Positions 19-22,717 of a stretch of 64,000 nt of DNA are shown piece by piece. Where the stretch lies: NCBI GenBank assembly GCA_964421015.1, contig CAYQUS010000001.1, positions 172,726 through 236,725 of the forward strand. Direction: 5' to 3'. A program made the translations under genes and the position numbers. The stretch is from an uncultured Planctomycetia bacterium (GTDB lineage: Bacteria; Omnitrophota; Gorgyraeia; Tantalellales; Tantalellaceae). The first letter of the stretch is position 1, and the number at the start of each line of letters is the position of its first letter. The notes below the pieces were generated by a model. The model was not told where the DNA came from, searched no databases, and was given only the letters and a program-made list of their open reading frames with translations.

Positions 19-834
19 TTACTTTCGTCCTCCTGACATTTCAGCAGAACGGTTCCTGGCCGCCAGGACAGCCTCCTTCACGATCTCTTTAAAGCCCTTA
101 TCGGAAAAAACGGAAAGAGCCGCCTCTGTGGTACCGCCCTTGGAAGCCACCATCTTTACAAGATCTGCCGCTTCATGGTCAGACTTCCTTAAAAGTTCCG
201 AAGCCCCTGACAATGTGCCCAGAACCAGTTCTTTCGCCGATTCACGGCTTAACCCTCCGACTATCGCCGCCTCCATCATGGCCTCGGCCAGAGAAAAAAG
301 ATACGCCGGACCGCTGCCCGAAACAGCCGTGACCATGTCCATCATGGTCTCCTTAACATCAACGACATCCCCTATACATCTGAATATTTCCCTGACCCTG
401 TCTCCCGCCTGTACCTTTTCGGCTTGTTCGTTGAACGATAAAGCAGTTACCGACCGTCCTATACCGGCGCAAAGATTGGGCATCGCCCTGACAACCGGGA
501 TGTTTTTTCCGAATCCCGATACGATATCATTTATTCTGACACCTGCCATTACCGAAACTACTGTCTGGTCCACAAGATCGGCAGATATGGATCCCGACAA
601 TCCTGAAAAATCCAACGGTTTAACGGCTATAACTATCACATCGGACCCTCTTACTATCTGTGTCAACTCGCCGTTGCGGCATCCAACCCTGGAACAGAGC
701 TCCTCCGCTTTGGCGGCGTCTTTGTCATAAACATAAACATCTGCCTTCCTGAAATTGCCACGGGAAACTATACCGCTTGCGATAGCTCCGCCCATGTTCC
801 CGCACCCGATTATCCCTATAGACCCTTTTGGCAT
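19..834 (-). CDS. proC: pyrroline-5-carboxylate reductase
   Basis: N-terminal Rossmann motif IGIIGCGNMGGAI and overall P5CR-like sequence; 271 aa. Confidence 0.85.
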   Translation of the reverse strand: MPKGSIGIIGCGNMGGAIASGIVSRGNFRKADVYVYDKDAAKAEELCSRVGCRNGELTQIVRGSDVIVIAVKPLDFSGLSGSISADLVDQTVVSVMAGVRINDIVSGFGKNIPVVRAMPNLCAGIGRSVTALSFNEQAEKVQAGDRVREIFRCIGDVVDVKETMMDMVTAVSGSGPAYLFSLAEAMMEAAIVGGLSRESAKELVLGTLSGASELLRKSDHEAADLVKMVASKGGTTEAALSVFSDKGFKEIVKEAVLAARNRSAEMSGGRK

Positions 835-873: not shown

Positions 874-1929
874 TCAAAAATACTCGTCCATGACTCCGGC
901 TATTTCGTTTACCATCCTCTTAAGCGGGTTTTTCTCGGTCTGTCTTTTGGGACGAGAAACTTCCATCTGGTCGAGTATACCCAGAACAGTCGCGTACTGC
1001 GCTCCGTCCTCGGGCAGCTCCTCCGAAGGATGAGGCAAAGGCAACCCTGCCCTTATAGGAAGCCCCAGGAACTTCTCGGAAGAATGCAGAAAATCATCCG
1101 GGAGAGACTTTGTTCCCGAAACTACGATCTTCCTCATATCGCTCCATCCTCTCATCGACAGGACATTCCTGAAAAACCATCCGTACCCGTCGTACTCCGT
1201 TTCTCCGGCGCCCATATCGGGGCCATCGGCCACAGACCTGTCGAAAACCGAGCAGTTCGCCAGATTCCCGGCATTAAAAAGAAGTACCTCAGTCCTTTTC
1301 CCCCTTACGAAAAAAAAGGCCGTCCTGTCCAGTTTATCGTCTTCCGTGAGTATTCTGGAAGCGCATCCCATGGGGCTAAAAACAAAACCGGCCGGTATAT
1401 ACCCCGCCTGGGCAATGGTCTTTGAAAAGTTCCTCACGACGGTAGCTCCGATAGTCACTATGTTGACCTCAACGCCAAGTTTTACCGCCTCAAGTCCTTC
1501 CGGATCACGGATAAACCTTTCTCCATCGACCGAAAACCCCATGACCACCTTGTGCAGCACTTCCCTGTCGAGCGGTATCCTGGACATGGATCCTATCTCG
1601 ACGCATTTACGCACATCCCTGGATGAAACTTCACGACCGTACCTCGATATAAGAGTGGAAGCGGAAGATGTTAAAACCTCGACAGAAGGAGAGCTTATCC
1701 CGGCGTAGACCTCGCTGAAGGACATATCGGCTTTTTTAGAAAGGCCTTCCAGAAGAGACCTTAAATGTTCAGCGGCGGGATAAACTTCCGTTACCGAACC
1801 GTCCGACAAACCCGAAGACCGAGCCCGGTGAAAAGCCTCGACCACTGCCCGGCCACTTTTTTCCAAACGTACCGCCAAAGCGAAAGTATCTTCGCTGCCG
1901 GCGTCAATAACCGCGAATTTTTTTTCCAT
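874..1929 (-). CDS. ftsA: FtsA-like actin-family cell-division protein with degenerate nucleotide-binding motifs
   Basis: Aligns along its length to E. coli FtsA (VIDAGS phosphate-1, SVLTEDE-like RILTEDDK, C-terminal amphipathic tail); sits directly after ftsQ in the dcw cluster. The DIGGGTxD motif is VRGKRTE and GGGA is SGTK. Confidence 0.7.
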   Translation of the reverse strand: MEKKFAVIDAGSEDTFALAVRLEKSGRAVVEAFHRARSSGLSDGSVTEVYPAAEHLRSLLEGLSKKADMSFSEVYAGISSPSVEVLTSSASTLISRYGREVSSRDVRKCVEIGSMSRIPLDREVLHKVVMGFSVDGERFIRDPEGLEAVKLGVEVNIVTIGATVVRNFSKTIAQAGYIPAGFVFSPMGCASRILTEDDKLDRTAFFFVRGKRTEVLLFNAGNLANCSVFDRSVADGPDMGAGETEYDGYGWFFRNVLSMRGWSDMRKIVVSGTKSLPDDFLHSSEKFLGLPIRAGLPLPHPSEELPEDGAQYATVLGILDQMEVSRPKRQTEKNPLKRMVNEIAGVMDEYF

Positions 1930-2832: not shown

Positions 2833-3774
2833 CTATCGCTTTACCCTGCCGTTAGAAGCGCTTTCCAACATCTTAACACATAATAGCTCAAAATCAAATC
2901 CCGCCGCCTTAGCGGCCATGGGAAGAAGGCTCTTTTCCGTAAGCCCGGGAATAGTATTTACCTCAAGAACATAAAGCCGGCCGTCGGACGTCATCCTTAT
3001 GTCCGTACGAGAAAACCCTCTGCATCCCAGAGCCTTATGAGCGGCTATGCCCGCTTCCTGCGCGCGTTCAAAGTTGTCCTTGCCTATCTCTGCCGGGACT
3101 TTATAAACGGTGCTTTGCGACCGATATTTGGAATCGTAGTCGTAAACCCCTCCTGAAACGGTTATCTCAACCACGGGAAGAGCTTTCTCCTCGAGGACCC
3201 CCACGGTGAGTTCCCTGCCCGGGATGTATTCCTCCACCAGGACCTCTCCCCCGAACTTGAGCCCTTTTTCGACGGCCTGAGCGAGTTCTTCCCGGTGTCT
3301 TACAACCGTAAGCCCTATGCTGGAGCCCTCGTAACGCGGTTTCACCACGCAAGGGACTTTCGCGTCTCTTAGCGCATTATCCGTGTCTTGACCGTATGAT
3401 ACGCTTCGGGACTCCGGGACAAGAAGCCCCGCTTTACGGAACATCTCTTTGGAAGCAAGCTTGTCGAGGGCCGTACGTGAAGCTTCCGGTCCAGAGCCCG
3501 TGTAAGGTATACCGGCACCCGACAAAAGCTCCTGCACCGCCCCATCCTCTCCGAATTTACCGTGAAGAGCTATAAAAGCCACATCGACATTTTCTTTTCT
3601 TATGACATCCAGAAGATCTCGCTCTGCCGCGTCAATAAGTACCGAGTCTATGCCTGCCGCCTCGAAAGCCCGTTTTACAGCCTGCCCGCTTTTAAGGCTT
3701 ATTTCTCTTTCCGACGAAGGCCCCCCGGCCAGTATGCCAACCTTTCCGCCTGTAAATAGCGATCGGCCGCTCAT
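2833..3774 (-). CDS. ddl: D-alanine--D-alanine ligase
   Basis: ATP-grasp Ddl motifs (GGPSSEREISLKSG, HGKFGEDG). Confidence 0.9.
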   Translation of the reverse strand: MSGRSLFTGGKVGILAGGPSSEREISLKSGQAVKRAFEAAGIDSVLIDAAERDLLDVIRKENVDVAFIALHGKFGEDGAVQELLSGAGIPYTGSGPEASRTALDKLASKEMFRKAGLLVPESRSVSYGQDTDNALRDAKVPCVVKPRYEGSSIGLTVVRHREELAQAVEKGLKFGGEVLVEEYIPGRELTVGVLEEKALPVVEITVSGGVYDYDSKYRSQSTVYKVPAEIGKDNFERAQEAGIAAHKALGCRGFSRTDIRMTSDGRLYVLEVNTIPGLTEKSLLPMAAKAAGFDFELLCVKMLESASNGRVKR

Positions 3775-3810
3775 GTCTTTTCCTCACTTTCATGCCGTTG
3801 TATTTGTTTT

Positions 3811-4728
3811 TCAACTTTCAACTATCTCTATCTCTTCCTCAAGCTCGATACCGAATTTATCCATGACCCGCGTTTTTATGTCGCTTATAAGTCCCCTGAC
3901 ATCGAAACTGGTAGCCCGATTGTCGTTGATTATAAAGTTAGCGTGTTTTTCCGAAACCACCGCGCCTCCCCTTCTCTTACCGCGCATACCGGCGCCGTCG
4001 ACAAGTCTCCACGCTGTTTGACCACCTTTCCCGGGGTTCTTAAAAACACATCCAAGCGTCCTTTTGTCACAGGGCTGTTTTTCCCATTTATCAAGGAACA
4101 CTTTTTTTATCCTGCCCCTGACCTCCTCCTTGGAAGAAACAGAGAGAGAGAACACCGCTTTAAGTATTACCCCCCCTCCCGGCCAGGAAAAAGAACGATA
4201 GCCGAAACGCAGATCTTGTTTTTCGATCCATATCTTTTTCATTGAATCGTCCAGCACCTGTATTCTTGTAAGGGTATCGGTTATGGCGCCCTCCGTGGAT
4301 GAAGCGTTGTTCCTTATAGCCCCGCCGATCGTAGCGGGTATTCCCGACATGCACTCAAGCCCCAAGATCCCTCTGTCGGAACACTTCCTTAACACGCATG
4401 AGAGCCTTAAACCCGAAGAAACCGTCAGCTCCCTGCCTTTTTGTTCCCAGGAAAAATCTCCCCCCGGAAGCTTGATGACGGCTCTGTCAAAACAGTGGTC
4501 CGGGAAAAGCACATTTGAGCAGTTACCGGCTATGAAGTATTTCTCTCCCGCATCCCGCAGGCATTTCAACGATTCCTCAAGACATTCCTCTGTCGAGGGA
4601 GAGCATAAAATTCTAGCCTTTCCTCCCACTCGGATCGAGCTTAACCCCGCCAGGTCAGCGTTCTCCTCTATTTCTCCCCCGCGCTTCGCGTATATCTTCT
4701 TAAGGTCGTTTACGACTCCCTGTTTCAT
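3811..4728 (-). CDS. murB: UDP-N-acetylenolpyruvoylglucosamine reductase
   Basis: FAD-binding MurB-like sequence; position between murC and ddl. Confidence 0.85.
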   Translation of the reverse strand: MKQGVVNDLKKIYAKRGGEIEENADLAGLSSIRVGGKARILCSPSTEECLEESLKCLRDAGEKYFIAGNCSNVLFPDHCFDRAVIKLPGGDFSWEQKGRELTVSSGLRLSCVLRKCSDRGILGLECMSGIPATIGGAIRNNASSTEGAITDTLTRIQVLDDSMKKIWIEKQDLRFGYRSFSWPGGGVILKAVFSLSVSSKEEVRGRIKKVFLDKWEKQPCDKRTLGCVFKNPGKGGQTAWRLVDGAGMRGKRRGGAVVSEKHANFIINDNRATSFDVRGLISDIKTRVMDKFGIELEEEIEIVES

Positions 4729-6116
4729 TATGCCGCCGCGACTCCCATTTTTTTCCTTATGTTTTCAAGCAGAACGCCGGAGATCTCTCTTATGTCGCCC
4801 GCCCCCAATATGAGTATGGTATCATTCTCCTTTACCAGATCCGATATAGCCTCGGGAATACTGTCCTTTTTCAGAAGACGTATATCCTCAAACCTGCTCT
4901 TGTCTATCGCGCCGAAAAGCCTTTCCACACTGGCGCCCTCAAGAGGGTCTTCATCGGCCGAATATATGTCGGTTAGAAAGAACACATCCGACCCGTAAAA
5001 ACATTCCGAGAATTCTGCCTCAAGATCGAAAGTGCGGGAATACCTGTGAGGCTGAAAAACAGCCAGGACCCTTCCTTCAGAAAAATCTTTGGCCGCTTTT
5101 ATAACTGACCTGAGTTCCGTGGGGTGATGGGCATAATCCTCCACTATCCTTATTCCCCCCACTCTCCCTACCGTGTCAAAACGCCTCTTAACGCCCTTGA
5201 ACATCTCCACCGCCTCGAAAACCCTTTCCGGGGACATTCCCATTTCCACGCAAAGGGCAGAAGCTCCCAGGATATTGGCGACATTGTGAAGGCCTATAAG
5301 AGGACTTCTTACGGTACCGACGGACCTGCCTTTAAGGAACATTTCAAACTCTATCTTCTTTCTGTGTTCCTTTATCGCGCATGACGCGTCATGTTTTCCG
5401 GAAAGACCGAAACTTAATTTTTCGGACTTGGCCGATTTCACAAGATCCCTTAACGTCGCGTCGTCGCCGTTGAAGGCAAGTATACCTTTAGAAGCCACTT
5501 TCCCTATGAACGACCTGTACGCCTCGAGAAGGCGTTCCATTGTTCCGTAATGTTCCATGTGTTCCCGTTCGACATTGGTCACAATAGCGTGGGTTAGCGG
5601 TATCTCCCTGAAAAACCCGTCGCTCTCGTCGACTTCGGCCACTACCACGTCGCCCCGCCCGAGCCTGGAGTTTTTACCGAACCTTTCCATCTCCCCCCCG
5701 ACAAGCACGGTAGGTTCCATGCCGCAGTGGTCCGTTATATAGGAAATAAGCCCGCTGGTGGTGGTCTTACCGTGGGTTCCCGTAACACCTATGGAAACGG
5801 AAGCCCGTTCTATGACATACTTTAGCATCTCTCCCCGGGAAATGACCTCGATACCCGCAAATCTCGCTTCAAGCACTTCGGGGTTGTCCTCCCTTATACA
5901 AGTCGATTTAACGACCACATCGGCATCACGCGGGACATTCGATGACGCATGCCCCTCAAAGATAGAAGCCCCCTTAGAGGAAAGCATCTTTGTGAGGTTA
6001 TTGAGCCTCGTATCGGAGCCCGAAACTTCGACCCCTTGATCAATAAGGACATCGGCCAGAGCGCTCATTCCTATGCCTCCCACTCCGATGAAATGCGCTT
6101 TCATGAATTTTTTCAT
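4728..6116 (-). CDS. murC: UDP-N-acetylmuramate--L-alanine ligase
   Basis: N-terminal HFIGVGGIGMSALA and Mur ligase GTHGKTTT P-loop. Confidence 0.9.
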   Translation of the reverse strand: MKKFMKAHFIGVGGIGMSALADVLIDQGVEVSGSDTRLNNLTKMLSSKGASIFEGHASSNVPRDADVVVKSTCIREDNPEVLEARFAGIEVISRGEMLKYVIERASVSIGVTGTHGKTTTSGLISYITDHCGMEPTVLVGGEMERFGKNSRLGRGDVVVAEVDESDGFFREIPLTHAIVTNVEREHMEHYGTMERLLEAYRSFIGKVASKGILAFNGDDATLRDLVKSAKSEKLSFGLSGKHDASCAIKEHRKKIEFEMFLKGRSVGTVRSPLIGLHNVANILGASALCVEMGMSPERVFEAVEMFKGVKRRFDTVGRVGGIRIVEDYAHHPTELRSVIKAAKDFSEGRVLAVFQPHRYSRTFDLEAEFSECFYGSDVFFLTDIYSADEDPLEGASVERLFGAIDKSRFEDIRLLKKDSIPEAISDLVKENDTILILGAGDIREISGVLLENIRKKMGVAAA

Positions 6117-6169
6117 ATTTTCTCCGTAGACTTAGACCACCGCGTAACGCCTCTTCCCGGCACCGTCAG

Positions 6170-7333
6170 TTAGCGCGTCGCGCACCGTATCACCTCTTCC
6201 GCCAAAATCCTCCCGGCCTGCGGCAGCGCCAGGCTGGAAGCGGCCTCTCTCATCAGAGATCTTTTTTCCGCGTTATCCAGTATCCCCAGTATATCACGGC
6301 AAAGCCCTTCGGAAGACAGAGATTTTTCCTCTCTGTACAGAGCCGCTCCCGCCGATGAAAAAGAACGGGCGTTATCAGCCTGATTATTCTTAGGATTAGG
6401 ATATGGCACCAGTATCATGGGTTTACCGTAATAAGCGATCTCGAATATAGCCGCCGCGCCCGATCTTGACACGACCATGTCGCTGACCGAATAGGCGTCT
6501 CCTATGTTCTCCATAAACCCGAAAACCTTACCGGGGATGGCGTGCTGCTCATAGAATCGTTCCACCTTCTCCTTGTCCGGGCCCTGCCCTGTTATGTGCA
6601 CGAACTGTACCTCTCGTCCTTTTCTGTTCTTTATCTCAAGAGCCGTCTCCAGCATGATACGATTCAGGAAACCGGCGCCCTGGCTGCCTCCCATTATGAG
6701 TATGGTTTCCTTTTCCGGGGAAATACCAAGCAGCGAAGCCGAACGAACCCTGTCATTCCGCAAAATCTCCAGCCTTATCGGATTTCCGGTAAAAACGGTC
6801 TTCCCCGTGTAACGGCCGAAACATTTCCTCGAGGATTCGAAACTTAGAGCTATCCTGTCGGCAATGGGACTTAGGATCACATTTGCCCTTCCCGGAACAG
6901 CGTTCTGTTCATGGATAACGAGCGGAACAAACATGAGCTTTGCCGCGAGCGATATGGCCCCCGAGGAATACCCCCCGAACCCTACCACCACATTCGGCCT
7001 TTTAGTCGCTATTATCCAGACAGAAGCCGCCAGATCCTTGACGCAGTTAAAAACGAATACCGCGATACTCTTGAAAGAAAATTTTCTGGGCATCGGGTTG
7101 ATCGAAAGAAAAAACCTTTCGTACTTCACTTCCCCCAGCAGGTTCATATCAAGTTTTCTCCTGCTGGAAACAATGAAGACATCTTTCACTCCAGCCTTTT
7201 CAAGTTCCGAGGCCAGAGAAACACACGGAAAAATATGTCCCCCGGAGCCTCCCGCCGCGAGTATCACCCTCAATGAAGATACTTCACGGGAAGACCTCTT
7301 GCAATTCAGATTTTTATGCGTATCCCGGATCAA
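6170..7333 (-). CDS. murG: UDP-GlcNAc:undecaprenyl-PP-MurNAc-pentapeptide GlcNAc transferase
   Basis: GT28 motif ILAAGGSGGHIFP; the annotated N-terminus may be over-extended. Confidence 0.9.
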   Translation of the reverse strand: MIRDTHKNLNCKRSSREVSSLRVILAAGGSGGHIFPCVSLASELEKAGVKDVFIVSSRRKLDMNLLGEVKYERFFLSINPMPRKFSFKSIAVFVFNCVKDLAASVWIIATKRPNVVVGFGGYSSGAISLAAKLMFVPLVIHEQNAVPGRANVILSPIADRIALSFESSRKCFGRYTGKTVFTGNPIRLEILRNDRVRSASLLGISPEKETILIMGGSQGAGFLNRIMLETALEIKNRKGREVQFVHITGQGPDKEKVERFYEQHAIPGKVFGFMENIGDAYSVSDMVVSRSGAAAIFEIAYYGKPMILVPYPNPKNNQADNARSFSSAGAALYREEKSLSSEGLCRDILGILDNAEKRSLMREAASSLALPQAGRILAEEVIRCATR

Positions 7334-8424
7334 GCTTTACCCTCGCATTGCCGAGACATATTAAGGACCAATGCCACGGCGATTATATGAAATAGGAACG
7401 AACTTCCCCCGTAGCTCAGGAAAGGCAGAGGCAGACCCTTTGTAGGCAAAAGCCCGGTAGATACTCCCGCGTTAACTGACACCTCGAAAGCCATCATTAT
7501 CCCTATTCCCGTAACGGTCAGAGAGGCAAAACGGTCGCGTATGCTCCCGGCTATCCTGAATATGAAAAAAATAAGCGCAGCGAAAAGTATTATAACTGAC
7601 GCTGACCCGAGAAAACCCAGTTCCTCTCCCACTATGGAAAAAATAAAATCCGTATGCGCCTCGGGCAAGAAAAATAGTTTCTGTTCAGACTGTCCGAGGC
7701 CCACACCTGTCATTCCTCCGGATCCCAGAGCTATGAAAGACTGGACCAGCTGGAAACCCGCTCCTGAACTCTCTCGCCACGGATCCAGGAAGATCGCCAC
7801 CCTTTTCAGCCTGTAAGGTTTCATTAAAACCGCGGCCACCATAAGAGGCACCACAGGCAGCACGATACCAAAAATGTGTTTTATTTTAACACCTGAAAGA
7901 AAAAGCATCGTGAACCCAATAAAAAGTATCGCTACCGACGTTCCCATGTCGGGCTCGGCCAGGACAAGCATGGCTGAGACAAGGATCACGGCGACCGGAG
8001 GTATAAAACCCCTAAAAAGATCGTTCATCATATACCTTTTCCTCGACGCGAAATCCGCGAGATAGAGTATAACCGCTATTTTCATCCCCTCCGAAGGCTG
8101 AAATCCCAGACCAAAGATCCTCATCCATCTTCTGGCACCGCCTGCCTCAACTCCTATCCCCGGGATAAGTACAAGAAAAAGAAGCGCCAGAAATATGCCC
8201 AGTATCACTTTTGAATTCCCCGCCCAGGCGCGCGCGGGGAATTTAAGCACAAAAAAAGCCGCGGCCATGCCAAGCACGAGAAAAACCATATGACGCTTGA
8301 TAAGATACATACTGTCGGCATAGCGCTGATACGCGTACACCGCGCTGGCGGAGTATATCATTACCACCCCCAGCATTATGAGCAGCGACGTCAACAGCAG
8401 CACCATTTTGGCTTCGTTCTTCAC
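7330..8424 (-). CDS. ftsW: peptidoglycan glycosyltransferase FtsW (SEDS family)
   Basis: Polytopic membrane protein with SEDS-family features; between murD and murG. Confidence 0.85.
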   Translation of the reverse strand: MKNEAKMVLLLTSLLIMLGVVMIYSASAVYAYQRYADSMYLIKRHMVFLVLGMAAAFFVLKFPARAWAGNSKVILGIFLALLFLVLIPGIGVEAGGARRWMRIFGLGFQPSEGMKIAVILYLADFASRKRYMMNDLFRGFIPPVAVILVSAMLVLAEPDMGTSVAILFIGFTMLFLSGVKIKHIFGIVLPVVPLMVAAVLMKPYRLKRVAIFLDPWRESSGAGFQLVQSFIALGSGGMTGVGLGQSEQKLFFLPEAHTDFIFSIVGEELGFLGSASVIILFAALIFFIFRIAGSIRDRFASLTVTGIGIMMAFEVSVNAGVSTGLLPTKGLPLPFLSYGGSSFLFHIIAVALVLNMSRQCEGKA

Positions 8425-8426
8425 TT

Positions 8427-9776
8427 TTACCTTCCCGTACCCGACAATTCCCTGACGGCTTCACGGAACACGCGCCCACGATGGGCATAACTTTCGAACA
8501 TGTCAAAACTCGAACACATCGGCGAGAGCATGACGGCTTCCCCGCTTTTGGCAGCCGACACCGCCTTTTTTACGGCGTCATTCATGCTTTCGGCTTCGTA
8601 GACCGGGACAACGGAGGAGAAGGCCCGTTTTATGTTCTCCCTGGCCTCCCCTATGACGACTATAGCGCTTACTTTGTCCCTCATAAGAGCCGATACAACG
8701 CTGTAATCCCCAAGTTTATCCCTGCCTCCCGCTATTAGAACAACGCGCCTGTCAACGGATTCAAGAGCCCGCTTGGTGGCGTCAACGTTAGTGGCCTTGG
8801 AATCGTCTATGAACACCAGCCCCTTGAATTCATTGACTTTCTGGAACCTGTGCTCAAGACCTTTAAAACCCGTGACGGCCGACCTGACTACCTCCGGGCT
8901 TATACCTTCCAACTCGGCCACCTGACAACAGCACGCTATGTTTTCCATATTGTGTTTACCCTTGATGTCTGTCTCCTCGGACGTCACAAAGACCTTCTCT
9001 CCTTCAGGGGAAGATACAACTACCCTGTCGTTCTCGGCCCGGTACCTGTCTCCTTCACCCCCGTAAAAAACAACTCTGCTCTTTATTCCTCTTACAGCAG
9101 CATCCAGTTTGAAGTCGCTGTGAATAACGGCAAAATCGTTTTTTTTCTGGTTCATGAATATCCTGAATTTGCTCAGCTTGTAGCTCTCAAACCCCTTATG
9201 CCTGTCATAATGGTCGTCTGTTACATTCAAGAGCACAGCTACCCTCGGAGAAAAGTCCACTATAGTGTCCAACTGAAAGGAGCTGACCTCCAGGACCACG
9301 GAACTTTTGGGGGTGATCCGCCCTATCTCTCCCGTAAACGGATTTCCTATGTTCCCGCAAACCACGGTGTCCCTGCCGGAACGGGTGAAAATTTCACCGA
9401 TCAAACTGGTAACTGTGGTCTTTCCGTTAGTGCCTGTAATGGCCACTATGGGAGCTCCGCAGAAAAGGTAGCCCAGTTCCAGCTCTCCTATCACCGGAAC
9501 GTTAGTTTTATTGTAGCCCGGCACAGGAAGATTATCCCTGTCTACCCCGGGACTCACCACTAAAATGTCATATCCCGAACAGAAACTTTCGGTATGGCCC
9601 CCTATTTCCACGCGTATTCCTTTTTCACGGAGAGAGTCACATCTCTTCTTTACGGACTCCGAACTGGATGCCTCTGTTACGCCCACCGCCGCTCCATTCT
9701 GCGACAAAAGACAAGCGGAGGCGAAACCGCTCACTCCCAGCCCCACCACCAGCACCTTCCTGCCTTTCAGCTCCAT
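8427..9776 (-). CDS. murD: UDP-N-acetylmuramoylalanine--D-glutamate ligase
   Basis: VVGLGVSG N-terminus, Mur ligase P-loop GTNGKTT. Confidence 0.9.
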   Translation of the reverse strand: MELKGRKVLVVGLGVSGFASACLLSQNGAAVGVTEASSSESVKKRCDSLREKGIRVEIGGHTESFCSGYDILVVSPGVDRDNLPVPGYNKTNVPVIGELELGYLFCGAPIVAITGTNGKTTVTSLIGEIFTRSGRDTVVCGNIGNPFTGEIGRITPKSSVVLEVSSFQLDTIVDFSPRVAVLLNVTDDHYDRHKGFESYKLSKFRIFMNQKKNDFAVIHSDFKLDAAVRGIKSRVVFYGGEGDRYRAENDRVVVSSPEGEKVFVTSEETDIKGKHNMENIACCCQVAELEGISPEVVRSAVTGFKGLEHRFQKVNEFKGLVFIDDSKATNVDATKRALESVDRRVVLIAGGRDKLGDYSVVSALMRDKVSAIVVIGEARENIKRAFSSVVPVYEAESMNDAVKKAVSAAKSGEAVMLSPMCSSFDMFESYAHRGRVFREAVRELSGTGR

Positions 9777-9823
9777 GTTTACCTTCTTCCTCGTTAGTAT
9801 GTCGGGTTTACTGTTCGCGAAAG

Positions 9824-10915
9824 CTATCTTACCTTAAGAGCCATGAGCCCAAAAAGAGCCAGTATCGCCGAAATTATCCAGAATCTGACTGTTATCTTGG
9901 ATTCATGCCATCCCTTCTTCTCAAAATGATGGTGTATCGGTGACATCAGAAAAATACGCTTTCCGCGCGTTTTGAAGGACATTACCTGAAGTATCACGGA
10001 AGCCGTTTCCATCACCAGAACCCCTCCGACCAGTATAAGAAGTATCTCTTTTTTTATTAGAACGCTAACGACGGCTATCGCGCTTCCGAGGGACAGAGAA
10101 CCCGTATCTCCCATAAAAACCGTGGCAGGGTGACCGTTGTACCAAAGAAAACCCAGGCTCGCGCCGGCCAGAGCCGCGCAGAAAATCGTGAGCTCTCCGG
10201 ATCCCGGCACGTAAAAAAGATGCAGATACCCGCTGATATCGGCTCTTCCGGTAACATAGCACATTATCGAATAAGTAAGAGCCACGAAGACCATGCACCC
10301 CGTAGCCAGCCCGTCAAGACCGTCCGTAAGGTTCACGGCGTTCGATGCCCCGGCTATAACGATAAGCGTAAATAGTATATAGAGCGCTCCTAGATTGGCT
10401 ACCGCGTTCTTAAGGAAAGGCACATAAAGATCTGAGCCGAGATACCTGTGTGAAATAACAAATATGCCTACTATGAGAGCAAGCAGTATCTGGGCCCCCA
10501 TCTTATACCGTGCCCCTAACCCCTTTGAATTCTTGTACCTTATTTTAAGAAGGTCGTCGAACGCTCCTACCATTCCCATCCAGGTCATACCCCCAAGAGC
10601 CATGATCAGGTATTCGTTATCGGGCCTTCCCCAGAGCACGCTTGCGAATATAACGGCCGCCAGTATAACGATCCCTCCCATGGTCGGGGTTCCCTGTTTG
10701 CCCTTATGAAGATCATATATCTCCCCCACATGTTCCGTCCTTACGTATTGCCCGGCCTTTATGATGCGCATCCATTTTATAAAAAAAGGCGTAACAAATA
10801 CCGTAAAAAGAAAGGCCGTAAAAGCAGCCATACCCGCCCTGAAGGTTATGTAGCGGAAGACGTTAAACCCGAACCAGAATTCCTTCAGCGGGTACAAGAG
10901 ATAGTAAAACATTTT
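9824..10915 (-). CDS. mraY: phospho-N-acetylmuramoyl-pentapeptide transferase
   Basis: FNVFRYITFRA matches the MraY N-terminus. The start is trimmed to Met27 of the long ORF, which otherwise overlaps murF by 109 bp. Confidence 0.9.
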   Translation of the reverse strand, partial: KMFYYLLYPLKEFWFGFNVFRYITFRAGMAAFTAFLFTVFVTPFFIKWMRIIKAGQYVRTEHVGEIYDLHKGKQGTPTMGGIVILAAVIFASVLWGRPDNEYLIMALGGMTWMGMVGAFDDLLKIRYKNSKGLGARYKMGAQILLALIVGIFVISHRYLGSDLYVPFLKNAVANLGALYILFTLIVIAGASNAVNLTDGLDGLATGCMVFVALTYSIMCYVTGRADISGYLHLFYVPGSGELTIFCAALAGASLGFLWYNGHPATVFMGDTGSLSLGSAIAVVSVLIKKEILLILVGGVLVMETASVILQVMSFKTRGKRIFLMSPIHHHFEKKGWHESKITVRFWIISAILALFGLMALKVR

Positions 10916-12264
10916 ATCACTTCCTCCATTTTCATAAGACGGGATCCTTTCACCAGTACCGTTGCGCCCGAAGAAGCTTTCTCTTTTATCCATCGAGCGG
11001 CATCTTCATGAGAAACAGCTTCGTGGGTGTTCCTCTTGTCCATTCCGTTCTCAACGGCTCCCTTAAGTATTTCCCTGCCCATCTCTCCCATTGCCACAAG
11101 GAAATTTATCTTAAGATCGGCTATTTTCCTTCCGACGGCGCGGTGCATTTCGGAGGAAAGATCTCCCAACTCCCTCATATCTCCCGCTACCACCCATTTT
11201 TCCGATTTCCCCCGATCTACACCCGAGAGTGTCTCCACCGCGGCCTCGAAAGAACTTGGATTCGCGTTATATGCGTCATTCAAAAAAGTTATCCCCCCTG
11301 TTACGGTCTTTTCAAGACGCATGGAAGGCAGGGAAAGTTTTCTTATCTCTTCTCCCGCGGCCTTGACGCTTATACCCATTTGTACCGCCACCGAAACAGC
11401 CGCCGCGGCGTTGTAGGCGTTATGCCTCCCTTCTCCGTTGAAAAAAAGTTTTTCCCCGTTAAGCTTGAACTCGACCCCACCGGGAACGCTTCTTATGTCC
11501 TCAAGCCGCATCTCGCAGTTATCCCCGGTCCCGTAAAAAATTATCCGGTGTTTATCAGACCTGACAGATGAAAGCATATCGTCATCCCCGTTAAGCAGTG
11601 CCGTGCCGCCGTCGCGGAGCTTATCCAGCAGACTTATCTTCTCCGAAAAAACACCTCTTCTGTCGCCGAAAGACTCCAGGTGCCCGAAGCCTATATTAGT
11701 TATCACGGCGATATCGGCCGAAGCTATGGAAGCAAGGTGCCCTATCTCGCCGAAATGATTCGTGCCCACTTCGAGAACGGCCGCTTCATGGGAAGAATTC
11801 ATTTCAAATAAAGTCAGGCAAAGCCCGAAAATGTTATTGTAGGAAGCTTTGCTTTTCAGTACACGGTACCTGCCTGAAAGAGTACCGGCTGTGACGTCTT
11901 TGACCGTGGTTTTCCCGTTGGTACCGGTAACACAGACCACTTTACCCCCGAACGACTTTCGTATCAACCCGGCTACTTTTCCCATGGCGTTTATGGAATC
12001 TTCCACCAGGATAAAAGGGGTCCTTTCCGTAAATTCATGGCCTGACGGCACCCTTTCGGCAATAACAAGGCAGGCTCCCCCGGAAACGGCCTCCTTAATG
12101 AAATCATGCCCGTCAAAATTATTACCCTTCACCGCTATAAAGACGTTTCCCGGCACGATTGACCTTGAGTCTATGGAAAAACCCCTGAGAACAGACACTC
12201 GCGCGGGGGAAAATAACCTGCCGCCTGTAGCGCTGACAACATCATTAAGGTCTAAGTCCATCAT
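10885..12264 (-). CDS. murF: UDP-MurNAc-tripeptide--D-alanyl-D-alanine ligase
   Basis: Mur ligase P-loop GTNGKTT; MurF-like N-terminal domain. Confidence 0.85.
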   Translation of the reverse strand: MMDLDLNDVVSATGGRLFSPARVSVLRGFSIDSRSIVPGNVFIAVKGNNFDGHDFIKEAVSGGACLVIAERVPSGHEFTERTPFILVEDSINAMGKVAGLIRKSFGGKVVCVTGTNGKTTVKDVTAGTLSGRYRVLKSKASYNNIFGLCLTLFEMNSSHEAAVLEVGTNHFGEIGHLASIASADIAVITNIGFGHLESFGDRRGVFSEKISLLDKLRDGGTALLNGDDDMLSSVRSDKHRIIFYGTGDNCEMRLEDIRSVPGGVEFKLNGEKLFFNGEGRHNAYNAAAAVSVAVQMGISVKAAGEEIRKLSLPSMRLEKTVTGGITFLNDAYNANPSSFEAAVETLSGVDRGKSEKWVVAGDMRELGDLSSEMHRAVGRKIADLKINFLVAMGEMGREILKGAVENGMDKRNTHEAVSHEDAARWIKEKASSGATVLVKGSRLMKMEEVIKCFTISCTR

Positions 12265-12293
12265 CTACTTTTATCTTCCCGCAAAAATTGTGA

Positions 12294-13769
12294 TCATGAC
12301 CCGTAACCGATACCGGCTAACGCCGACAAAGCCGATTCCCGGTCGTCAAAATGCACTGTCCTGTCATGGAATATCTGATAATTTTCGTGCCCTTTTCCGG
12401 CGATAATAACGGTATCTCCAGGTTTTGCCCTTTTAACAGCCGAAACTATAGCTTCCATCCTGTCCCTGATTATGCGATATTCCCTGCCCTCTGGTATCCC
12501 TTTCTCTATCTCTCTAAGTATGCTCTCGGGATCTTCCTTCCGGGGGTTGTCGTCCGTAAGAATAACTGCGTCGGAGATATCCGCCGCTATCCTTCCCATT
12601 ACGGGTCTCTTTGTCCTGTCCCTGTTCCCGCCGCACCCGAAAACACAGTACAGCTTACCTGTCGTCACCGCCTTAACGCTCTCAAGAGCGCTGCGCAAAG
12701 CGTCCGGCGTATGGGCGTAATCCACAAAAATACTGAAGGGAGCCGGCGAAACTATCCTTTCTAGCCTTCCAGGTACCCCTATTGCCTTGTCTATGCCGGT
12801 TATTAAGTCGCGGGATGAAAACCCCTTTCTTAAAAAAAGCGCCGCCGCTCCCATTATGTTGCTGATGTTGTGTTTCCCGGCCAGAGAAGACTTTACCCTG
12901 CCGACATTTTTCCCGCCATAAATAAGGTCCAGCTCCGTGCCATCCGGGGTCGATGACACGGCCGAACACGTAAGATCGGAAGAACTTTCAAATCCGAAAG
13001 TCACACGGTCTATTCCATTAAGACCAGCGAAAAATCTTCTTATCTTTGGATCATCATTATTCACCGCCAAAACACCGCCCGGCTTAAGATGCCCGGCTAT
13101 TTTAGCCTTGGCTTTCAGATAAGCGTCCATATCACCGTGGTAGTCAAGATGTTCCGGAGTAAGGTTGGTAAAGACCGCCCCGTCAAAACCTATCCCGAAA
13201 ACCCTGTCCTGATCAAGAGCGTGGCTTGAGACCTCAACCGCCGCGGCCTTTTTGCCATCGTCAACCATCTCCCTGAGCATGCCGTTGAGACGAAGTACAC
13301 CCTGCGTGGTCATATCAGATCTTTCGAGAGCATCGCCCTTTACCCTGTTAAAGACCGTACCGGTCATCCCGCAGGGAATACCCATAGCGTTAAATACGCT
13401 CTCTATTATGGAGACCGTGGTGCTTTTACCGTTAGTACCTGTAACCCCGAAAACTATAAGTTCGCCGGAAGGATCCCTGAAGAATTTCCTGGCAAGCGAG
13501 CCCAGCGCCTTTCTTGAATCCTCTACCGAAAGTATGTCCGCACGGCGGGGATGGGACTCCGGAAATCCCCCCCTTTCACAGACTACCGCTATGGCTCCCC
13601 TCTCAAAAGCTTCGTCAATACGTTCGTGGCCGTCAAAAGAGTTGCCTTTCACTGCCACAAAGATATCCCCCGGGAGCACCTTCCTTGAGTCATCTCTCAG
13701 CCCGGCGCCGCCCTCGCTCAAGGCTCTCTCAATATCGGAAATATTTACGGACGCATGTCCTCTATTCAT
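12294..13769 (-). CDS. murE: UDP-MurNAc-L-Ala-D-Glu--2,6-diaminopimelate ligase
   Basis: Mur ligase P-loop GTNGKSTT; consistent domain order. Confidence 0.9.
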   Translation of the reverse strand: MNRGHASVNISDIERALSEGGAGLRDDSRKVLPGDIFVAVKGNSFDGHERIDEAFERGAIAVVCERGGFPESHPRRADILSVEDSRKALGSLARKFFRDPSGELIVFGVTGTNGKSTTVSIIESVFNAMGIPCGMTGTVFNRVKGDALERSDMTTQGVLRLNGMLREMVDDGKKAAAVEVSSHALDQDRVFGIGFDGAVFTNLTPEHLDYHGDMDAYLKAKAKIAGHLKPGGVLAVNNDDPKIRRFFAGLNGIDRVTFGFESSSDLTCSAVSSTPDGTELDLIYGGKNVGRVKSSLAGKHNISNIMGAAALFLRKGFSSRDLITGIDKAIGVPGRLERIVSPAPFSIFVDYAHTPDALRSALESVKAVTTGKLYCVFGCGGNRDRTKRPVMGRIAADISDAVILTDDNPRKEDPESILREIEKGIPEGREYRIIRDRMEAIVSAVKRAKPGDTVIIAGKGHENYQIFHDRTVHFDDRESALSALAGIGYGS

Positions 13770-15463
13770 TGTGTTTTATTCCCCTGCTTTTGGATCTCTG
13801 TCTCAGGAGCCCCCAGATACTCAAGTGTCCTTTCGGCTATTTTCCGGAAAGTCGGACCGGCCACGGTCCCTCCGAAATGTTGGGGTCTCGGATCCTTGGC
13901 GACGACAACAACGCTTATGAGCGGGTTCTCTCTGGGGGCGAACCCCACAAAAACCGCGTAGTATTTGTCGGGATAATATCCTCCGGCCGGACTGACCATC
14001 TGAGCCGTTCCTGTTTTTCCGCAAGTCTCGTAACGCTTTATCATAGCCTGCTTTCCCGTGCCGTCAGTCACAACTCTCCGCAAAGTACGTTTCATTTTAT
14101 CACAGGTACCGGGACTTATCACCATTCTGCGTTTTTCCGGCAGGAACTTCTTTATTTGTTCCCCTTCCCAGGTAGTCACTTCTTCGACCACATAGGGTTT
14201 TACGAGATATCCCCCGTTGGCTATAACGCTTATGGCTCCGGCAAGCTGTATCGAAGTTACCGCTATCCCCTGCCCCATTGGGATAGTGGTAATGTCGCTT
14301 CGCGACCACACCTCCGGCGGCCGGCATATTCCGGCTATCTCGCCCGGCAGATCTATGCCGCTTTTCTCGCCGAACCCAAACCTTTGAACATACTCGAAAA
14401 GCTTTTTCTCCCCGAGCTTTTGAGCGGTCTTCACCACGCCTATATTGCTGGACTTGGCGATAACATCCTCGAAAGAAAGGTCCCCGTACGGGTGATAATC
14501 GTTAAGAAGCCTCCCGCAGACTTTGTATTTTCCGTTTTCACAGTAAACCTTGTCCTCAAGTTTAATTACACCCTCTTCAAGCGCCGCGCTCGCGGTAACT
14601 ATCTTAAAAACGCTTCCCGGCTCGAAAACGTCAGAAACAGCCGAGTTTTTAGCGTTTTCCCCCTTTAAAGAAGACGGATCGTTCGGATCGTACCCGGGGC
14701 GATTGGCCATGGCCAGTATCTTGCCTGAGGATGGCTCCATAACGATCACACTTCCGCCCGCGGCGTTAAACTGGCTGACCATAACGTCAAGCTCTTCCTC
14801 GGCTATATACTGGATAACGCTGTCTATGGTGAGGATTATATTATTGCCGTTGCGCGGCGGAACGGATTCGGACTCCTTTCTCAGGACCGAACGCATGCGG
14901 GCATCTCTGGTCTCGTGGCGTATACCCGGCCGCCCCTTAAGTTCCTTGTCGTACAGAAGCTCTATGCCTTCCAGTCCCTCATTATCCATGCCGACAAAAC
15001 CAAGAACATGCGAAGCCATCGTGTCGTTGGGGTATTTTCTTTTGCTCTCCGGACGGAAATAAACTCCTCTCAGGTTCAGAGAACTAAGCCGCTCGTAGTC
15101 GGAGTGCTCTATCTTCCTCTTTATCCATACAAAAGCCTTGTCGCGCTCAAGTTTTTTTTCCACATCGGAGACCTCGAGATCAAGTTCTTCCGCGAGAGTG
15201 TCAGAAAGGGATTTTTTGTCTGTCACCACCCTGGGATTACAGAACACGCTTTCAACTTCCATATTGATCGCTAAGGGGTCCATGTATCTGTCGAATACGG
15301 TACCGCGGCGGGGTTCCACCTGGAGTATCTGGTTGTGCTGTTTTTCAGCAAGAACGGAATACTTATCCCGGTCAACTACCTGTATGTAGAATAGACGGGC
15401 AAAAATAAATAAAAAAAACCCGCAAAAAGCGAGCATCACCATATATCGGCGCGTACTAAACAT
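13766..15463 (-). CDS. ftsI: penicillin-binding protein 3-like transpeptidase (FtsI)
   Basis: N-terminal TM segment, PBP dimerisation domain, transpeptidase SxxK motif (GSVFK) and KTG motif. Confidence 0.9.
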   Translation of the reverse strand: MFSTRRYMVMLAFCGFFLFIFARLFYIQVVDRDKYSVLAEKQHNQILQVEPRRGTVFDRYMDPLAINMEVESVFCNPRVVTDKKSLSDTLAEELDLEVSDVEKKLERDKAFVWIKRKIEHSDYERLSSLNLRGVYFRPESKRKYPNDTMASHVLGFVGMDNEGLEGIELLYDKELKGRPGIRHETRDARMRSVLRKESESVPPRNGNNIILTIDSVIQYIAEEELDVMVSQFNAAGGSVIVMEPSSGKILAMANRPGYDPNDPSSLKGENAKNSAVSDVFEPGSVFKIVTASAALEEGVIKLEDKVYCENGKYKVCGRLLNDYHPYGDLSFEDVIAKSSNIGVVKTAQKLGEKKLFEYVQRFGFGEKSGIDLPGEIAGICRPPEVWSRSDITTIPMGQGIAVTSIQLAGAISVIANGGYLVKPYVVEEVTTWEGEQIKKFLPEKRRMVISPGTCDKMKRTLRRVVTDGTGKQAMIKRYETCGKTGTAQMVSPAGGYYPDKYYAVFVGFAPRENPLISVVVVAKDPRPQHFGGTVAGPTFRKIAERTLEYLGAPETEIQKQGNKTQ

Positions 15464-15563
15464 TCGTTTGTGTTCTCCGCTGTACTGTAGCCCGAGGGGA
15501 TCGGGCTCTCAATCGGTCGGGATTAGTTCCGGTATAAGTCGGACCCGTTCTTTACTCAATACA

Positions 15564-15926
15564 TCAGATACGGTCATGAGCCTCGGCTGTGACCGTAAAA
15601 ATATCCATTATCTTATCGGCGAACGCCTCCTCATAACGGTCGGAAGCGTCATAAAGACCCGTTATTGAATAGGTATTGCCCCTGTCGCGTCTTTGCCCGG
15701 CGAACTGTATCTCCTTGCCCGACAGCGACGCCAGAAGATACCGGGGAGTCTCCATTTTCGAGAGATTATACATTAGGTCGGAATTGCGGTCAACAAGACA
15801 CGAGAGCTTTTTCCTGTCCTGCTGAAGGCCGTAACCCGTCTTGTATATCTCAGCGTGCTGATGCACGTAAAGAGACGCCACAGAAGTGAAAATAACCCCG
15901 GTCAACATCAGACTTTTAATTTTCAT
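15564..15926 (-). CDS. small single-TM protein in the FtsL position
   Basis: 120 aa with an N-terminal TM helix; its start overlaps the rsmH stop by 4 bp. No diagnostic motif was found. Confidence 0.4.
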   Translation of the reverse strand: MKIKSLMLTGVIFTSVASLYVHQHAEIYKTGYGLQQDRKKLSCLVDRNSDLMYNLSKMETPRYLLASLSGKEIQFAGQRRDRGNTYSITGLYDASDRYEEAFADKIMDIFTVTAEAHDRI

Positions 15927-16807
15927 TTGATCCTTTCCGCCACCCTTAGTTTGGCGCTCCTTGAACGCGGGTTGGTCTTTACTTCATCCTCACACGGGAT
16001 GATGGGCTTCTTCGCAAGCATCTTAAGAGTCCCGAACTTTGCCTCTTTTTTAAAGACCGTCTTAACTACCCTGTCCTCAAGAGAATGGAAAGATATAGCG
16101 CATATCCTTCTACCCGGCGCAAGAACCGAAATCGCGCCCTCTAAACCTTGTTCCGCCGCCGATAACTCATCATTGACTTTTATCCTTAATGCCTGAAAAG
16201 TCCTGCAGGCCGGATGTATCCGCTGCTTTGAGTACCACCTGCCTACGGCTTTTTCCACTATCCCGGAAAGCTGGCCGGTGGTTTCTATCCTGGCCTCTTT
16301 CCTGCCGGCTACTATCGCCGAGGCAATGAGCCTGTAATGGCGCTCCTCTCCATAATCTCGTATCAGCTCACGTATATCCTCTTCGCTGAACGTATTAACT
16401 ATATCTCTTGCCGTTATGCCTCCGGCCCTGTCAAAACGCATGTCCAGCGGACCTTCCAGCGTGTAACTGAATCCCCGTGCAGCCTCATCGATCTGATACG
16501 ATGAAAAACCAAGATCAAAAACCGCTCCGTCTATTTTACCTATCCCTCTTTCTTTCAGTATGTCCGCTATATCCCTGAAGTTCCCTTTAACCGGCACTAC
16601 GTTCTTTATTCCTTCACCGAATATCTTTTCGGCTCTTTCTACAGCCTCCACGTCGCGGTCTATCGCCACCAAGATCCCACCCGGTGTTATTCTTTTCAAT
16701 ATCTCCGCCGAGTGTCCACCTCCCCCGAAAGTAGCGTCCACCACCACATCTCCGGGCCGGGGATCCAGGAACGACAAAACCTCTTCTTTCATTACGGGAA
16801 GATGCAA
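15923..16807 (-). CDS. rsmH: 16S rRNA (cytosine1402-N4)-methyltransferase
   Basis: HxPV(L/M)xxE N-terminal motif and SAM motif DATFGGGGHS. Apparent TTG start 1 nt after the upstream ORF's stop. Confidence 0.9.
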   Translation of the reverse strand: MHLPVMKEEVLSFLDPRPGDVVVDATFGGGGHSAEILKRITPGGILVAIDRDVEAVERAEKIFGEGIKNVVPVKGNFRDIADILKERGIGKIDGAVFDLGFSSYQIDEAARGFSYTLEGPLDMRFDRAGGITARDIVNTFSEEDIRELIRDYGEERHYRLIASAIVAGRKEARIETTGQLSGIVEKAVGRWYSKQRIHPACRTFQALRIKVNDELSAAEQGLEGAISVLAPGRRICAISFHSLEDRVVKTVFKKEAKFGTLKMLAKKPIIPCEDEVKTNPRSRSAKLRVAERIK

Positions 16808-16808
16808 A

Positions 16809-17048
16809 TCAGTTTCCCTTCCTGGGATCTCTGCCGAAGACCTTGCTCATCGTGTCCATCTGATTGCGGTAAAAATTCTTGTAACTCGACGCCAGGTCGT
16901 TCTTAGCTTCAGGCTCGGACTTGCCCGTCTGTACGGCATGGTTATGGACCTTGCCGTACAGGGAACCGCCTATCTCGCAGGCCTGGAGCCTTCGTTTGTT
17001 CTCGGCTTCCTTGACGCTCAAGATTTTCCCCACGGTCACGTTGCTCAT
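16809..17048 (-). CDS. hypothetical protein, 79 aa
   Basis: Its ATG overlaps the upstream ORF's stop (TAATG) and its stop lies 1 nt before the rsmH start. No recognised domain. Confidence 0.45.
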   Translation of the reverse strand: MSNVTVGKILSVKEAENKRRLQACEIGGSLYGKVHNHAVQTGKSEPEAKNDLASSYKNFYRNQMDTMSKVFGRDPRKGN

Positions 17049-17263
17049 TACTTGCAGTCCTTTACGCTTAAGTACGCTTTTTTCCCGATGTCACTGGAAG
17101 TAACTACGAACCTCCTGACCCCAAGATGTGACATCCCGTCCGGAAGAGCTCTGGCTTTTTTCACACGCTCCACTATGTTCACACAGTTTATGAACTCTCT
17201 CTGCTTTTTATTGAACTCCATAGCGTATCGTTTGTACATACCCACCCCCCGGGCTAAAAACAT
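17048..17263 (-). CDS. hypothetical protein, 71 aa
   Basis: Its ATG overlaps the mraZ stop (TGATG). It exactly fills the mraZ-rsmH gap together with the 79-aa ORF. No recognised domain. Confidence 0.45.
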   Translation of the reverse strand: MFLARGVGMYKRYAMEFNKKQREFINCVNIVERVKKARALPDGMSHLGVRRFVVTSSDIGKKAYLSVKDCK

Positions 17264-17700
17264 CAGAAATCCATAAGGTTTTCCGCTATCTGCTCGTAAT
17301 TCTCTTTTGAGTTTTTATAAAAATCCATCCACTTCTGTTTGTCCCATATCTCTATCCTGTTAGAAACGCCGACCACCATTATCTCCTTGGAGAGCCCGCC
17401 GTATTCTTTGAGGTAATCCGGGACAAGTATCCTCCACTGTTTGTCTGGCGACGCCTGAGAAGCCCCCGCAAAAAATATACGCTGGAATTTCCTGTACTCT
17501 TTTTTGGTGAAAGACATGGCCTTGAATTTACTTTCCTGCTGCCTCCACTCTTTCTCTGGAAAAACAAAAAGACACTCATCAAGCCCTCTCGTCAGGTAGA
17601 GTGTCTGGGAATCAGCTTCTTCAAGGGGCTGCCGGAACCGGGCCGGAATTATCACCCGATTCTTATCGTCTATGCTGTGAAGGTACTCTCCGTAAAACAT
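17263..17700 (-). CDS. mraZ: transcriptional regulator MraZ
   Basis: Two MraZ repeats with DxxxR motifs (DDKNRVIIP, DKQWRILVP); first gene of the dcw cluster. Confidence 0.9.
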   Translation of the reverse strand: MFYGEYLHSIDDKNRVIIPARFRQPLEEADSQTLYLTRGLDECLFVFPEKEWRQQESKFKAMSFTKKEYRKFQRIFFAGASQASPDKQWRILVPDYLKEYGGLSKEIMVVGVSNRIEIWDKQKWMDFYKNSKENYEQIAENLMDF

Positions 17701-22415: not shown

Positions 22416-22717
22416 TCTAATCCTCCCGCGCAATTTGTGGTTGATAATGGCCGCTTGCGATGTACCTCGTATTTTGCGAAGAGTATACCATAAGGATTCA
22501 ATTGTGTAAATAGCGGCGAAAATAATAGTTACGAAAAGTCCTCCCTCTTTTGAACACCAACCCCCAGGCCGGTACTATTTTCTTATGTACAACGTGTCCC
22601 GGTTACTGTATCATATGTATCTTACTTGCTAAAAGTTTACGTGTTTTTTCATTACGGCTCCGTATTTCACGCGGTATTTTAACTGCCCGGACCGTTAGAA
22701 CAACTTGTCGGTGGTAT

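Follow-up and report, generated by a model that had tools for sequence, protein, structure and literature searches.

What does the division protein FtsA do in a bacterium whose ftsA gene is not followed by ftsZ? The question is raised by a 64-kb stretch of DNA, here called the window (contig CAYQUS010000001.1, positions 172,726 to 236,725), in which the division and cell wall (dcw) cluster ends with ftsQ, a gene for an FtsA-like protein (874-1929, minus strand) and proC. Most work on FtsA treats it as the anchor that ties FtsZ to the membrane, and what FtsA itself contributes to the activation of septal wall synthesis is difficult to disentangle from that task. The FtsA of the Omnitrophota, the phylum of the closest relatives of the window protein, may reveal how FtsA functions in the absence of FtsZ, which bears on how peptidoglycan-containing bacteria divide without a Z-ring. 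Overall, we consider it fairly probable that the gene is the ftsA ortholog of an ftsZ-less lineage and that its product is now an FtsZ-independent, probably nucleotide-independent adaptor for septal peptidoglycan synthesis, tethered to the membrane.

The sole Pfam match of the protein is the FtsA-specific SHS2 (1C) domain (SHS2_FTSA, residues 87-159, at 2.3e-14). The score against the ftsA equivalog model TIGR01174 is 93.2 bits, below the cutoff of 175.85 and with only residues 6-225 aligned; a profile of 25 family members matched E. coli FtsA (7q6d) at 3.5e-33. The AlphaFold model (predicted local distance difference test, pLDDT, 82.7; predicted template modeling score, pTM, 0.82) contains a confidently predicted ASKHA core, and the top 19 Foldseek matches were all FtsA structures, with template modeling (TM) scores of up to 0.75. 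The actin/ASKHA fold with its 1C (SHS2) insertion was thus recovered by Pfam, AlphaFold and Foldseek. The gene comes after ftsQ, where the dcw cluster ends, as it does in more than 30 related loci. Based on fold and synteny, we conclude that 874-1929 is the ftsA ortholog.

The most similar proteins (34-99% identity) are all about 350 residues long and all labelled Candidatus Omnitrophota, a phylum of the PVC (Planctomycetes, Verrucomicrobia and Chlamydiae) group, and the window is assigned to an Omnitrophota bacterium. When one genome was scanned for each GTDB species (best match to the window protein 56%), the short-FtsA family turned up in 29 species of Omnitrophota, among them Ca. Makaraimicrobium thalassicum and Ca. 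Aadella gelida. These short FtsAs fall under the ftsA equivalog cutoff and are often annotated as "hypothetical protein". Several metagenome-assembled genomes with an Omnitrophota-type cluster and a short FtsA are titled "uncultured Planctomycetia bacterium", which is probably a taxonomic mislabel.

The following parts of the protein can be distinguished:

1885..1917, minus strand: phosphate-1 region, residues 5-15, FAVIDAGSEDT, variable within the window clade
1453..1671, minus strand: 1C (SHS2) subdomain, residues 87-159 (Pfam), the best conserved part
1285..1317, minus strand: phosphate-2 loop (residues 205-215), degenerate, with FFFVRGKRTEV instead of the canonical xxDIGGGTxDI (profile and MAFFT alignments)
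1147..1233, minus strand: what is left of subdomain 2B (residues 233-261), a stretch that is about 55 residues longer in canonical FtsA
1102..1128, minus strand: adenosine motif (residues 268-276), degenerate, with IVVSGTKSL instead of the canonical IVLTGGxAxL (alignments)
877..930, minus strand: C-terminal amphipathic tail, residues 334-351, NPLKRMVNEIAGVMDEYF, presumed membrane-targeting helix

The largest change is the loss of subdomain 2B. In the profile alignment, residues 8-233 of the query correspond to residues 13-236 of E. coli FtsA and residues 265-326 to residues 330-391, and E. coli residues 237-329 face only about 31 residues in the short family (query 234-264). In a MAFFT alignment of 68 short forms with 88 long forms, the latter being the full-length FtsAs most similar to the short family, the phosphate-2 motif lies at a median distance of 51 residues from the adenosine motif in the short forms as compared to 106 in the long forms. 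The same distance was 55 residues, against 107, in a second and much larger Omnitrophota subgroup (290 clusters of proteins of about 356 residues). Approximately 55 residues of subdomain 2B have thus been deleted, and the pLDDT is low at residues 241-246, within the remnant. Subdomain 2B is reportedly the binding site of the C-terminal peptide of FtsZ. The longitudinal IIA-IIB contact in FtsA filaments is likewise made by this subdomain (bioRxiv 10.1101/2021.11.08.467742).

The nucleotide-binding motifs are degenerate as well. The E. coli sequence DIGGGTMD aligns with FVRGKRTE (residues 207-214) and LTGGAAQ of the adenosine motif with VSGTKSL. The phosphate-2 pattern DxG[GAS]G[TS] was found in none of the 68 short forms and in 55 of the 88 long forms, and the DxGGGT loop was present in 0 of 117 short-form proteins of the second subgroup. 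At phosphate-1, the short forms have the Asp in 54/68, DxG in 33/68 and the following Lys in 11/68 sequences, as compared to 87/88, 84/88 and 73/88 in the long FtsAs; the adenosine GG is found in 20/68 and 79/88, respectively. Thus, where canonical FtsA has DxGxxK, DxGGGT and GG, the window protein has IDAGSED, FVRGKRTE and SGTK. The motif positions vary freely within the window clade, which indicates relaxed constraint. It is plausible from the sequence that the window protein does not bind ATP, since Phe stands where phosphate-2 should have its Asp and bulky charged residues occupy the loop. The original prediction, made from the DNA sequence of the window, had described the loss of the glycine motifs (VRGKRTE and SGTK), and both alignments extend this loss to the whole family; the deletion of 2B, the most telling change, was absent from that account.

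Other parts of the protein are strongly retained. Of the alignment columns at residues 79-160 (1C), 27 of 82 are at least 90% conserved, and conservation is also high in the adjoining 1A segment. The 2A half lies below 1C, and the 2B remnant is the least conserved part (0 of 29 columns). The hydrophobic moment of the last 15 residues is 0.55 in the window protein, with a family mean of 0.65 and a value of 0.31 for shuffled tails; the tail of E. coli FtsA gave 0.57. AlphaFold predicts a helix at residues 335-347. The comparison with shuffled tails is in line with the amphipathic C-terminal tail that had been read from the sequence at first, and the combination of hydrophobic moment and predicted helix identifies it as the C-terminal amphipathic helix typical of FtsA, which presumably tethers the protein to the membrane. 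The short family ends in a conserved D/E-x-YF, in which Y350 and F351 are invariant. The ratio of nonsynonymous to synonymous substitutions (dN/dS) was 0.15-0.19 in unsaturated pairs and the corresponding polymorphism ratio between strains (pN/pS) was 0.18, showing that the gene is under purifying selection and functional.

The order of events can be read from the relatives. A rough neighbor-joining tree, with canonical FtsA as the root, groups 66 of the 68 short forms into one clade, and full-length forms with a degenerate phosphate-2 loop branch below it. The closest full-length relatives (405-411 residues) already have the degenerate phosphate-2 loop and a "(D/E)YF" end. One of them, P0158 (411 residues; loci L041/L042, 8001-9236), retains 2B, has a degenerate phosphate-2 motif and is located in ftsZ-less proC synteny, which places the loss of ftsZ before the deletion of 2B. 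Another, P0202 (409-residue type; locus L043, 5177-6406), likewise retains 2B and has no adjoining ftsZ, and is followed by unannotated genes on the opposite strand, not by proC. Both look like intermediates in a reduction series. The proteins of the second subgroup are devoid of 2B and keep the phosphate-1 motif DIGSSK (94/117) and the adenosine GG, with (D/N)xG(A/S)SLTE at phosphate-2. Since this larger sister group keeps phosphate-1 and the adenosine GG, the erosion of the motifs is graded, and the window clade is its most eroded end. The series leads from canonical FtsA over full-length forms with a degenerate phosphate-2 loop and 2B-less forms with phosphate-1 and adenosine motifs intact to 2B-less forms with all motifs eroded, and could help to find out which functions of FtsA depend on FtsZ, on ATP or on polymerization.

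The gene order in the window was determined by Pfam and by blastp against the annotated locus L007:

17263-17700, minus strand: mraZ (Pfam and blastp)
15923-16807, minus strand: rsmH (Pfam and blastp)
15564-15926, minus strand: ftsL candidate, 120 residues, by position, with no Pfam match
13766-15463, minus strand: ftsI (Pfam and blastp)
between ftsI and ddl, minus strand: murE, murF, mraY, murD, ftsW, murG, murC and murB (Pfam and blastp)
2833-3774, minus strand: ddl (Pfam and blastp)
1987-2823, minus strand: ftsQ, 278 residues (Pfam POTRA_1 and FtsQ_DivIB_C)
874-1929, minus strand: FtsA-like gene, 351 residues, short form devoid of subdomain 2B, positional ftsA ortholog
19-834, minus strand: proC (pyrroline-5-carboxylate reductase), in the slot expected for ftsZ

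Within the first 18 kb, every gene runs on the minus strand, and the dcw cluster is complete (mraZ to ddl, 2833..17700), in agreement with the canonical order mraZ...ddl-ftsQ-ftsA that had been proposed. The proC assignment is supported by TIGR00112 (248 bits, above the cutoff of 196.75), and proC follows ftsA on the same strand after a computed gap of 39 bp, first given as 40 bp. The window starts 18 nt past the proC stop codon, and a gene beyond proC can therefore not be read from it. No FtsZ was found in the 64 kb by a tubulin-signature search or by tblastn with the FtsZ sequences of E. coli and B. subtilis; as a positive control, the same queries detected ftsZ adjoining ftsA in a Bacilli locus. 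The Pfam annotation of the remaining window genes gave housekeeping functions only, with no tubulin, SepF or further division genes. Open reading frames, TIGR00112, the tubulin-signature search and tblastn are thus in accordance with the initial description of a dcw cluster that ends ftsQ-ftsA-proC with no ftsZ.

Some other features of the window may be mentioned here. A PilZ-domain protein, a putative cyclic di-GMP receptor, is encoded immediately upstream of mraZ, where the dcw cluster begins (18000-18440, minus strand), and the 455 bp between mraZ and rsmH (16808-17262) contain only small open reading frames of 71 and 79 residues. A ParA/MinD-type P-loop ATPase (21366-22433, minus strand; AAA_31, CbiA and MipZ matches) has a C-terminal glycogen-binding module (AMPK1_CBM / CBM_48), a fusion that is unusual for a positioning ATPase. 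The GC skew is negative in all 2-kb bins (-0.07 to -0.21) and the minus strand carries almost every gene, suggesting that the whole 64 kb is located on one replichore with its genes co-oriented. In a strain with a 99%-identical protein, six independent assemblies all break inside proC, at 232-237 of its 271 residues, and none of the contigs with this protein, P0001, is longer than 4.6 kb. In this species, something beyond proC apparently prevents assembly, for example a repeat or strain variation.

A comparison with the dcw clusters of related taxa, which the original prediction had proposed as a check, revealed that the ftsZ-less order is shared. The order ftsQ-ftsA-(yggS)-proC-yggT-...-ileS-lspA-rluD-murA was observed in more than 30 Omnitrophota loci, with ftsZ in none. 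About 25 species have ftsQ, the ftsA-like gene, proC, yggT, DUF167, PNP, ileS, a dksA-type zinc finger gene, lspA, lgt, rluD and murA, and two loci read from the second subgroup have ftsQ-ftsA-yggS-proC-yggT-.... In one of these two (L044) murA is followed by mreB, which also follows in L007. No FtsZ was found by tblastn in 645 kb of related loci, with the Bacilli control positive. Two loci have no proC downstream: in L018, ftsA is followed by genes for a cytidylyltransferase-like protein, argS, mfd, surA and pdxA, and the neighbors in L033 give no Pfam match. The idea that a different cytoskeletal gene is hidden at these loci was rejected, L018 having housekeeping genes and L033 neighbors with no Pfam match. 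We take the corresponding region in Bacillus and cyanobacteria to be ftsA-ftsZ-ylmD-ylmE(yggS)-sepF-ylmG(yggT)-...-ileS-ylyA-lspA-rluD. Read against this order, which serves as a lead only, the Omnitrophota arrangement looks like the ancestral one minus ftsZ and sepF. Locus L044 also contains a murC-murB fusion gene (6032-8275) encoding 747 residues with Mur ligase and MurB domains.

The published record points in the same direction. Seymour et al. (2023) described the Omnitrophota as having no ftsZ save for one archaeal-like copy, probably a contaminant (PMC10066038, Supplementary Note 1), and Pende et al. (2021) listed Omnitrophica among the FtsZ-less phyla, together with Planctomycetes and Chlamydiae (PMC8178401, Fig. 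5b legend). The table of the latter study covers five Omnitrophica genomes, with FtsZ in OLB16 only, FtsA in four and SepF in none; three of the five have FtsA present and FtsZ absent (PMC8178401). The suggestion of an FtsZ-independent division mode, as in some PVC-group bacteria, is thus supported both by the Omnitrophota relatives and by the two surveys; this part of the original prediction stands, although it was made unaware that FtsZ loss in the phylum had been published. That FtsZ-less Omnitrophota retain FtsA is already on record, mostly in supplements. Literature searches for a description of a 2B-less FtsA or of an eroded nucleotide site gave nothing relevant, and the remodelled state itself appears to be undescribed.

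These results can be combined into a model of how the protein evolved. The lineage would have lost ftsZ first, after which the parts of FtsA that served FtsZ would no longer have been needed and would have decayed. Subdomain 2B, as FtsZ-peptide dock and longitudinal filament contact, would have been deleted, and the nucleotide-binding loops would have eroded, worst in the window clade. Selection would have retained the 1A/1C half and the C-terminal amphipathic helix. With these parts retained and the FtsZ-facing parts gone, the protein is most likely a membrane-tethered adaptor, a role that we infer together with its partners. The 1C domain and the 1A-1C cleft might hold the short cytoplasmic tails of FtsQ and/or FtsW/FtsI, encoded in the same operon. 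In canonical FtsA, the tail of FtsN binds the IA-IC cleft and IC may also bind FtsQ (bioRxiv 10.1101/2021.11.08.467742). The cytoplasmic N-terminal tails of FtsQ are short and polybasic, MAR(K/R)xxxKKKKK in an alignment of 24 loci and MAR(K/R)xxSKKKKKK... for the window and L010-L038, and such a tail could possibly be the ligand of the conserved 1C domain. In the window subclade, an extra conserved prefix, GTVKIWGYKLSRKNK, precedes the polybasic tail. The septum would be positioned by something other than the Z-ring, possibly MreB, which is encoded about 10 kb downstream in relatives. More tentatively, a minimal FtsA that is 2B-less and here nucleotide-free might be the only cytoplasmic organizer of FtsQ, FtsW and FtsI in a Z-ring-free divisome, a step for which we would claim possibility and not probability.

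Several observations speak against this interpretation. The loss of glycines alone is no proof of lost ATP binding: 33 of the 88 long FtsAs also fail the strict phosphate-2 pattern, and PilM binds ATP via a DxGAxxT loop. The partner of the 1C domain is a candidate only, as membrane proteins in general often have polybasic tails next to the membrane, which therefore provide weak evidence for an adaptor. That ftsZ is missing from the genome of the window is something we infer from relatives and from the literature. FtsZ has been reported in "Omnitrophica bacterium OLB16" by Pende 2021 and also by Rivas-Marin 2016, in both cases only there. A 2025 paper in iScience groups Omnitrophota with phyla that have conserved dcw genes, calling these genes "highly conserved"; its supplement has no Omnitrophota rows. 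The ftsZ absence described by Seymour et al. is based on marker-gene detection, by which divergent homologs may be missed (PMC10066038). According to the same note, Omnitrophota are also without ribosomal protein L30 and without ftsY, the signal recognition particle receptor (PMC10066038); the surprising absence of ftsY may reflect divergence beyond the marker threshold, which calls for caution with the ftsZ result too.

The alternative that fares best, although we regard it as unlikely, is that ATP is still bound and used via a non-canonical pocket and that the resulting filaments organize division instead of FtsZ. It would be compatible with the confidently predicted ASKHA core, with the DIGSSK and adenosine GG of the sister subgroup, with the phosphate-1 Asp in 54 of the 68 short forms and with the high conservation of 1C, which makes lateral contacts in FtsA double filaments (bioRxiv 10.1101/2021.11.08.467742). 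However, the window protein has Phe in place of the phosphate-2 Asp, an R-G-K-R loop and G-T in place of the adenosine GG, and the varying motif positions indicate relaxed constraint. Moreover, the 2A half is less conserved than 1C, and the deletion of 2B takes away the IIA-IIB longitudinal contact.

Still less likely, in our estimate, is that ftsZ has been relocated elsewhere in the genome and that FtsA tethers FtsZ through a different surface. The window is only 64 kb and begins right after proC, OLB16, which is labelled Omnitrophica, has FtsZ adjoining FtsA, and the 2025 survey describes dcw genes as conserved in the phylum, all of which would leave room for such a copy. Against this, two independent surveys found no Omnitrophota FtsZ besides the one contaminant and that of OLB16, the ancestral ftsZ slot is empty in all of the more than 30 loci, the docking subdomain for the FtsZ tail has been deleted, and SepF is likewise absent in the five genomes surveyed (PMC8178401).

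A PilM-like or other ASKHA scaffold without a role in division that lies after ftsQ by chance, or a decaying relic, is very improbable: the score under the NCBIfam ftsA cutoff and the similar length and 1C-type insert of PilM would fit, but a PilM identity is rejected by the lack of a Pfam PilM_2 match at E up to 1, by a Foldseek TM of 0.5 for PilM against 0.75 for FtsA, by dcw and proC neighbors with no pilN/O/P/Q and by a position after ftsQ that is fixed in all loci, and a pseudogene or relic likewise by the dN/dS of 0.15-0.19, the invariant residues and the intact open reading frames in hundreds of protein clusters.

The membrane-tethered, FtsZ-independent adaptor thus remains the interpretation that we favor. 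If the bolder reading of a Z-ring-free divisome organized by a minimal FtsA is true, it would be a natural separation of function, in which the downstream recruitment by FtsA stands alone, without FtsZ and without ATP.

With canonical FtsA (E. coli 7Q6D, V. maritimus 7Q6F, T. maritima 1E4G/4A2A), the window protein shares an actin/ASKHA fold into which 1C (SHS2) is inserted, a gene position behind ftsQ where the dcw cluster ends, and an amphipathic membrane helix at the C-terminus, with a tail ending of the "...EYF/KEF" type. It differs in being about 60 residues shorter and devoid of 2B, in having lost DxGGGT, with phosphate-1 and adenosine motifs eroded, in scoring under the TIGR01174 cutoff and in not being followed by an ftsZ gene. 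The full-length Omnitrophota-type FtsA, P0158, has the same ftsZ-less synteny, a degenerate phosphate-2 motif and the C-terminus "EDYF", but its 2B region of about 105 residues is still there, unlike in the short form. PilM of the type IV pilus (5EOU, 2YCH) is similar in its length of about 350 residues and in its FtsA-like fold with a 1C-type domain, and holds the cytoplasmic tail of its bitopic partner PilN in the 1A-1C cleft, which resembles the adaptor mode proposed here; the window protein has a C-terminal amphipathic helix, whereas PilM has none.

Chlamydiota and Planctomycetota, also PVC bacteria without FtsZ, likewise kept peptidoglycan synthesis together with ftsQ, ftsW and ftsI, and mreB is found in the Omnitrophota relatives. 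In Planctomycetes and Chlamydiae, FtsA and SepF are absent too (Pende et al. 2021, PMC8178401). Thus, Chlamydiota and Planctomycetota lost FtsA along with FtsZ, whereas Omnitrophota kept a remodelled FtsA (PMC8178401, PMC12283558), one that is under purifying selection and that has lost precisely the subdomain facing FtsZ and, within one clade, the nucleotide site too.

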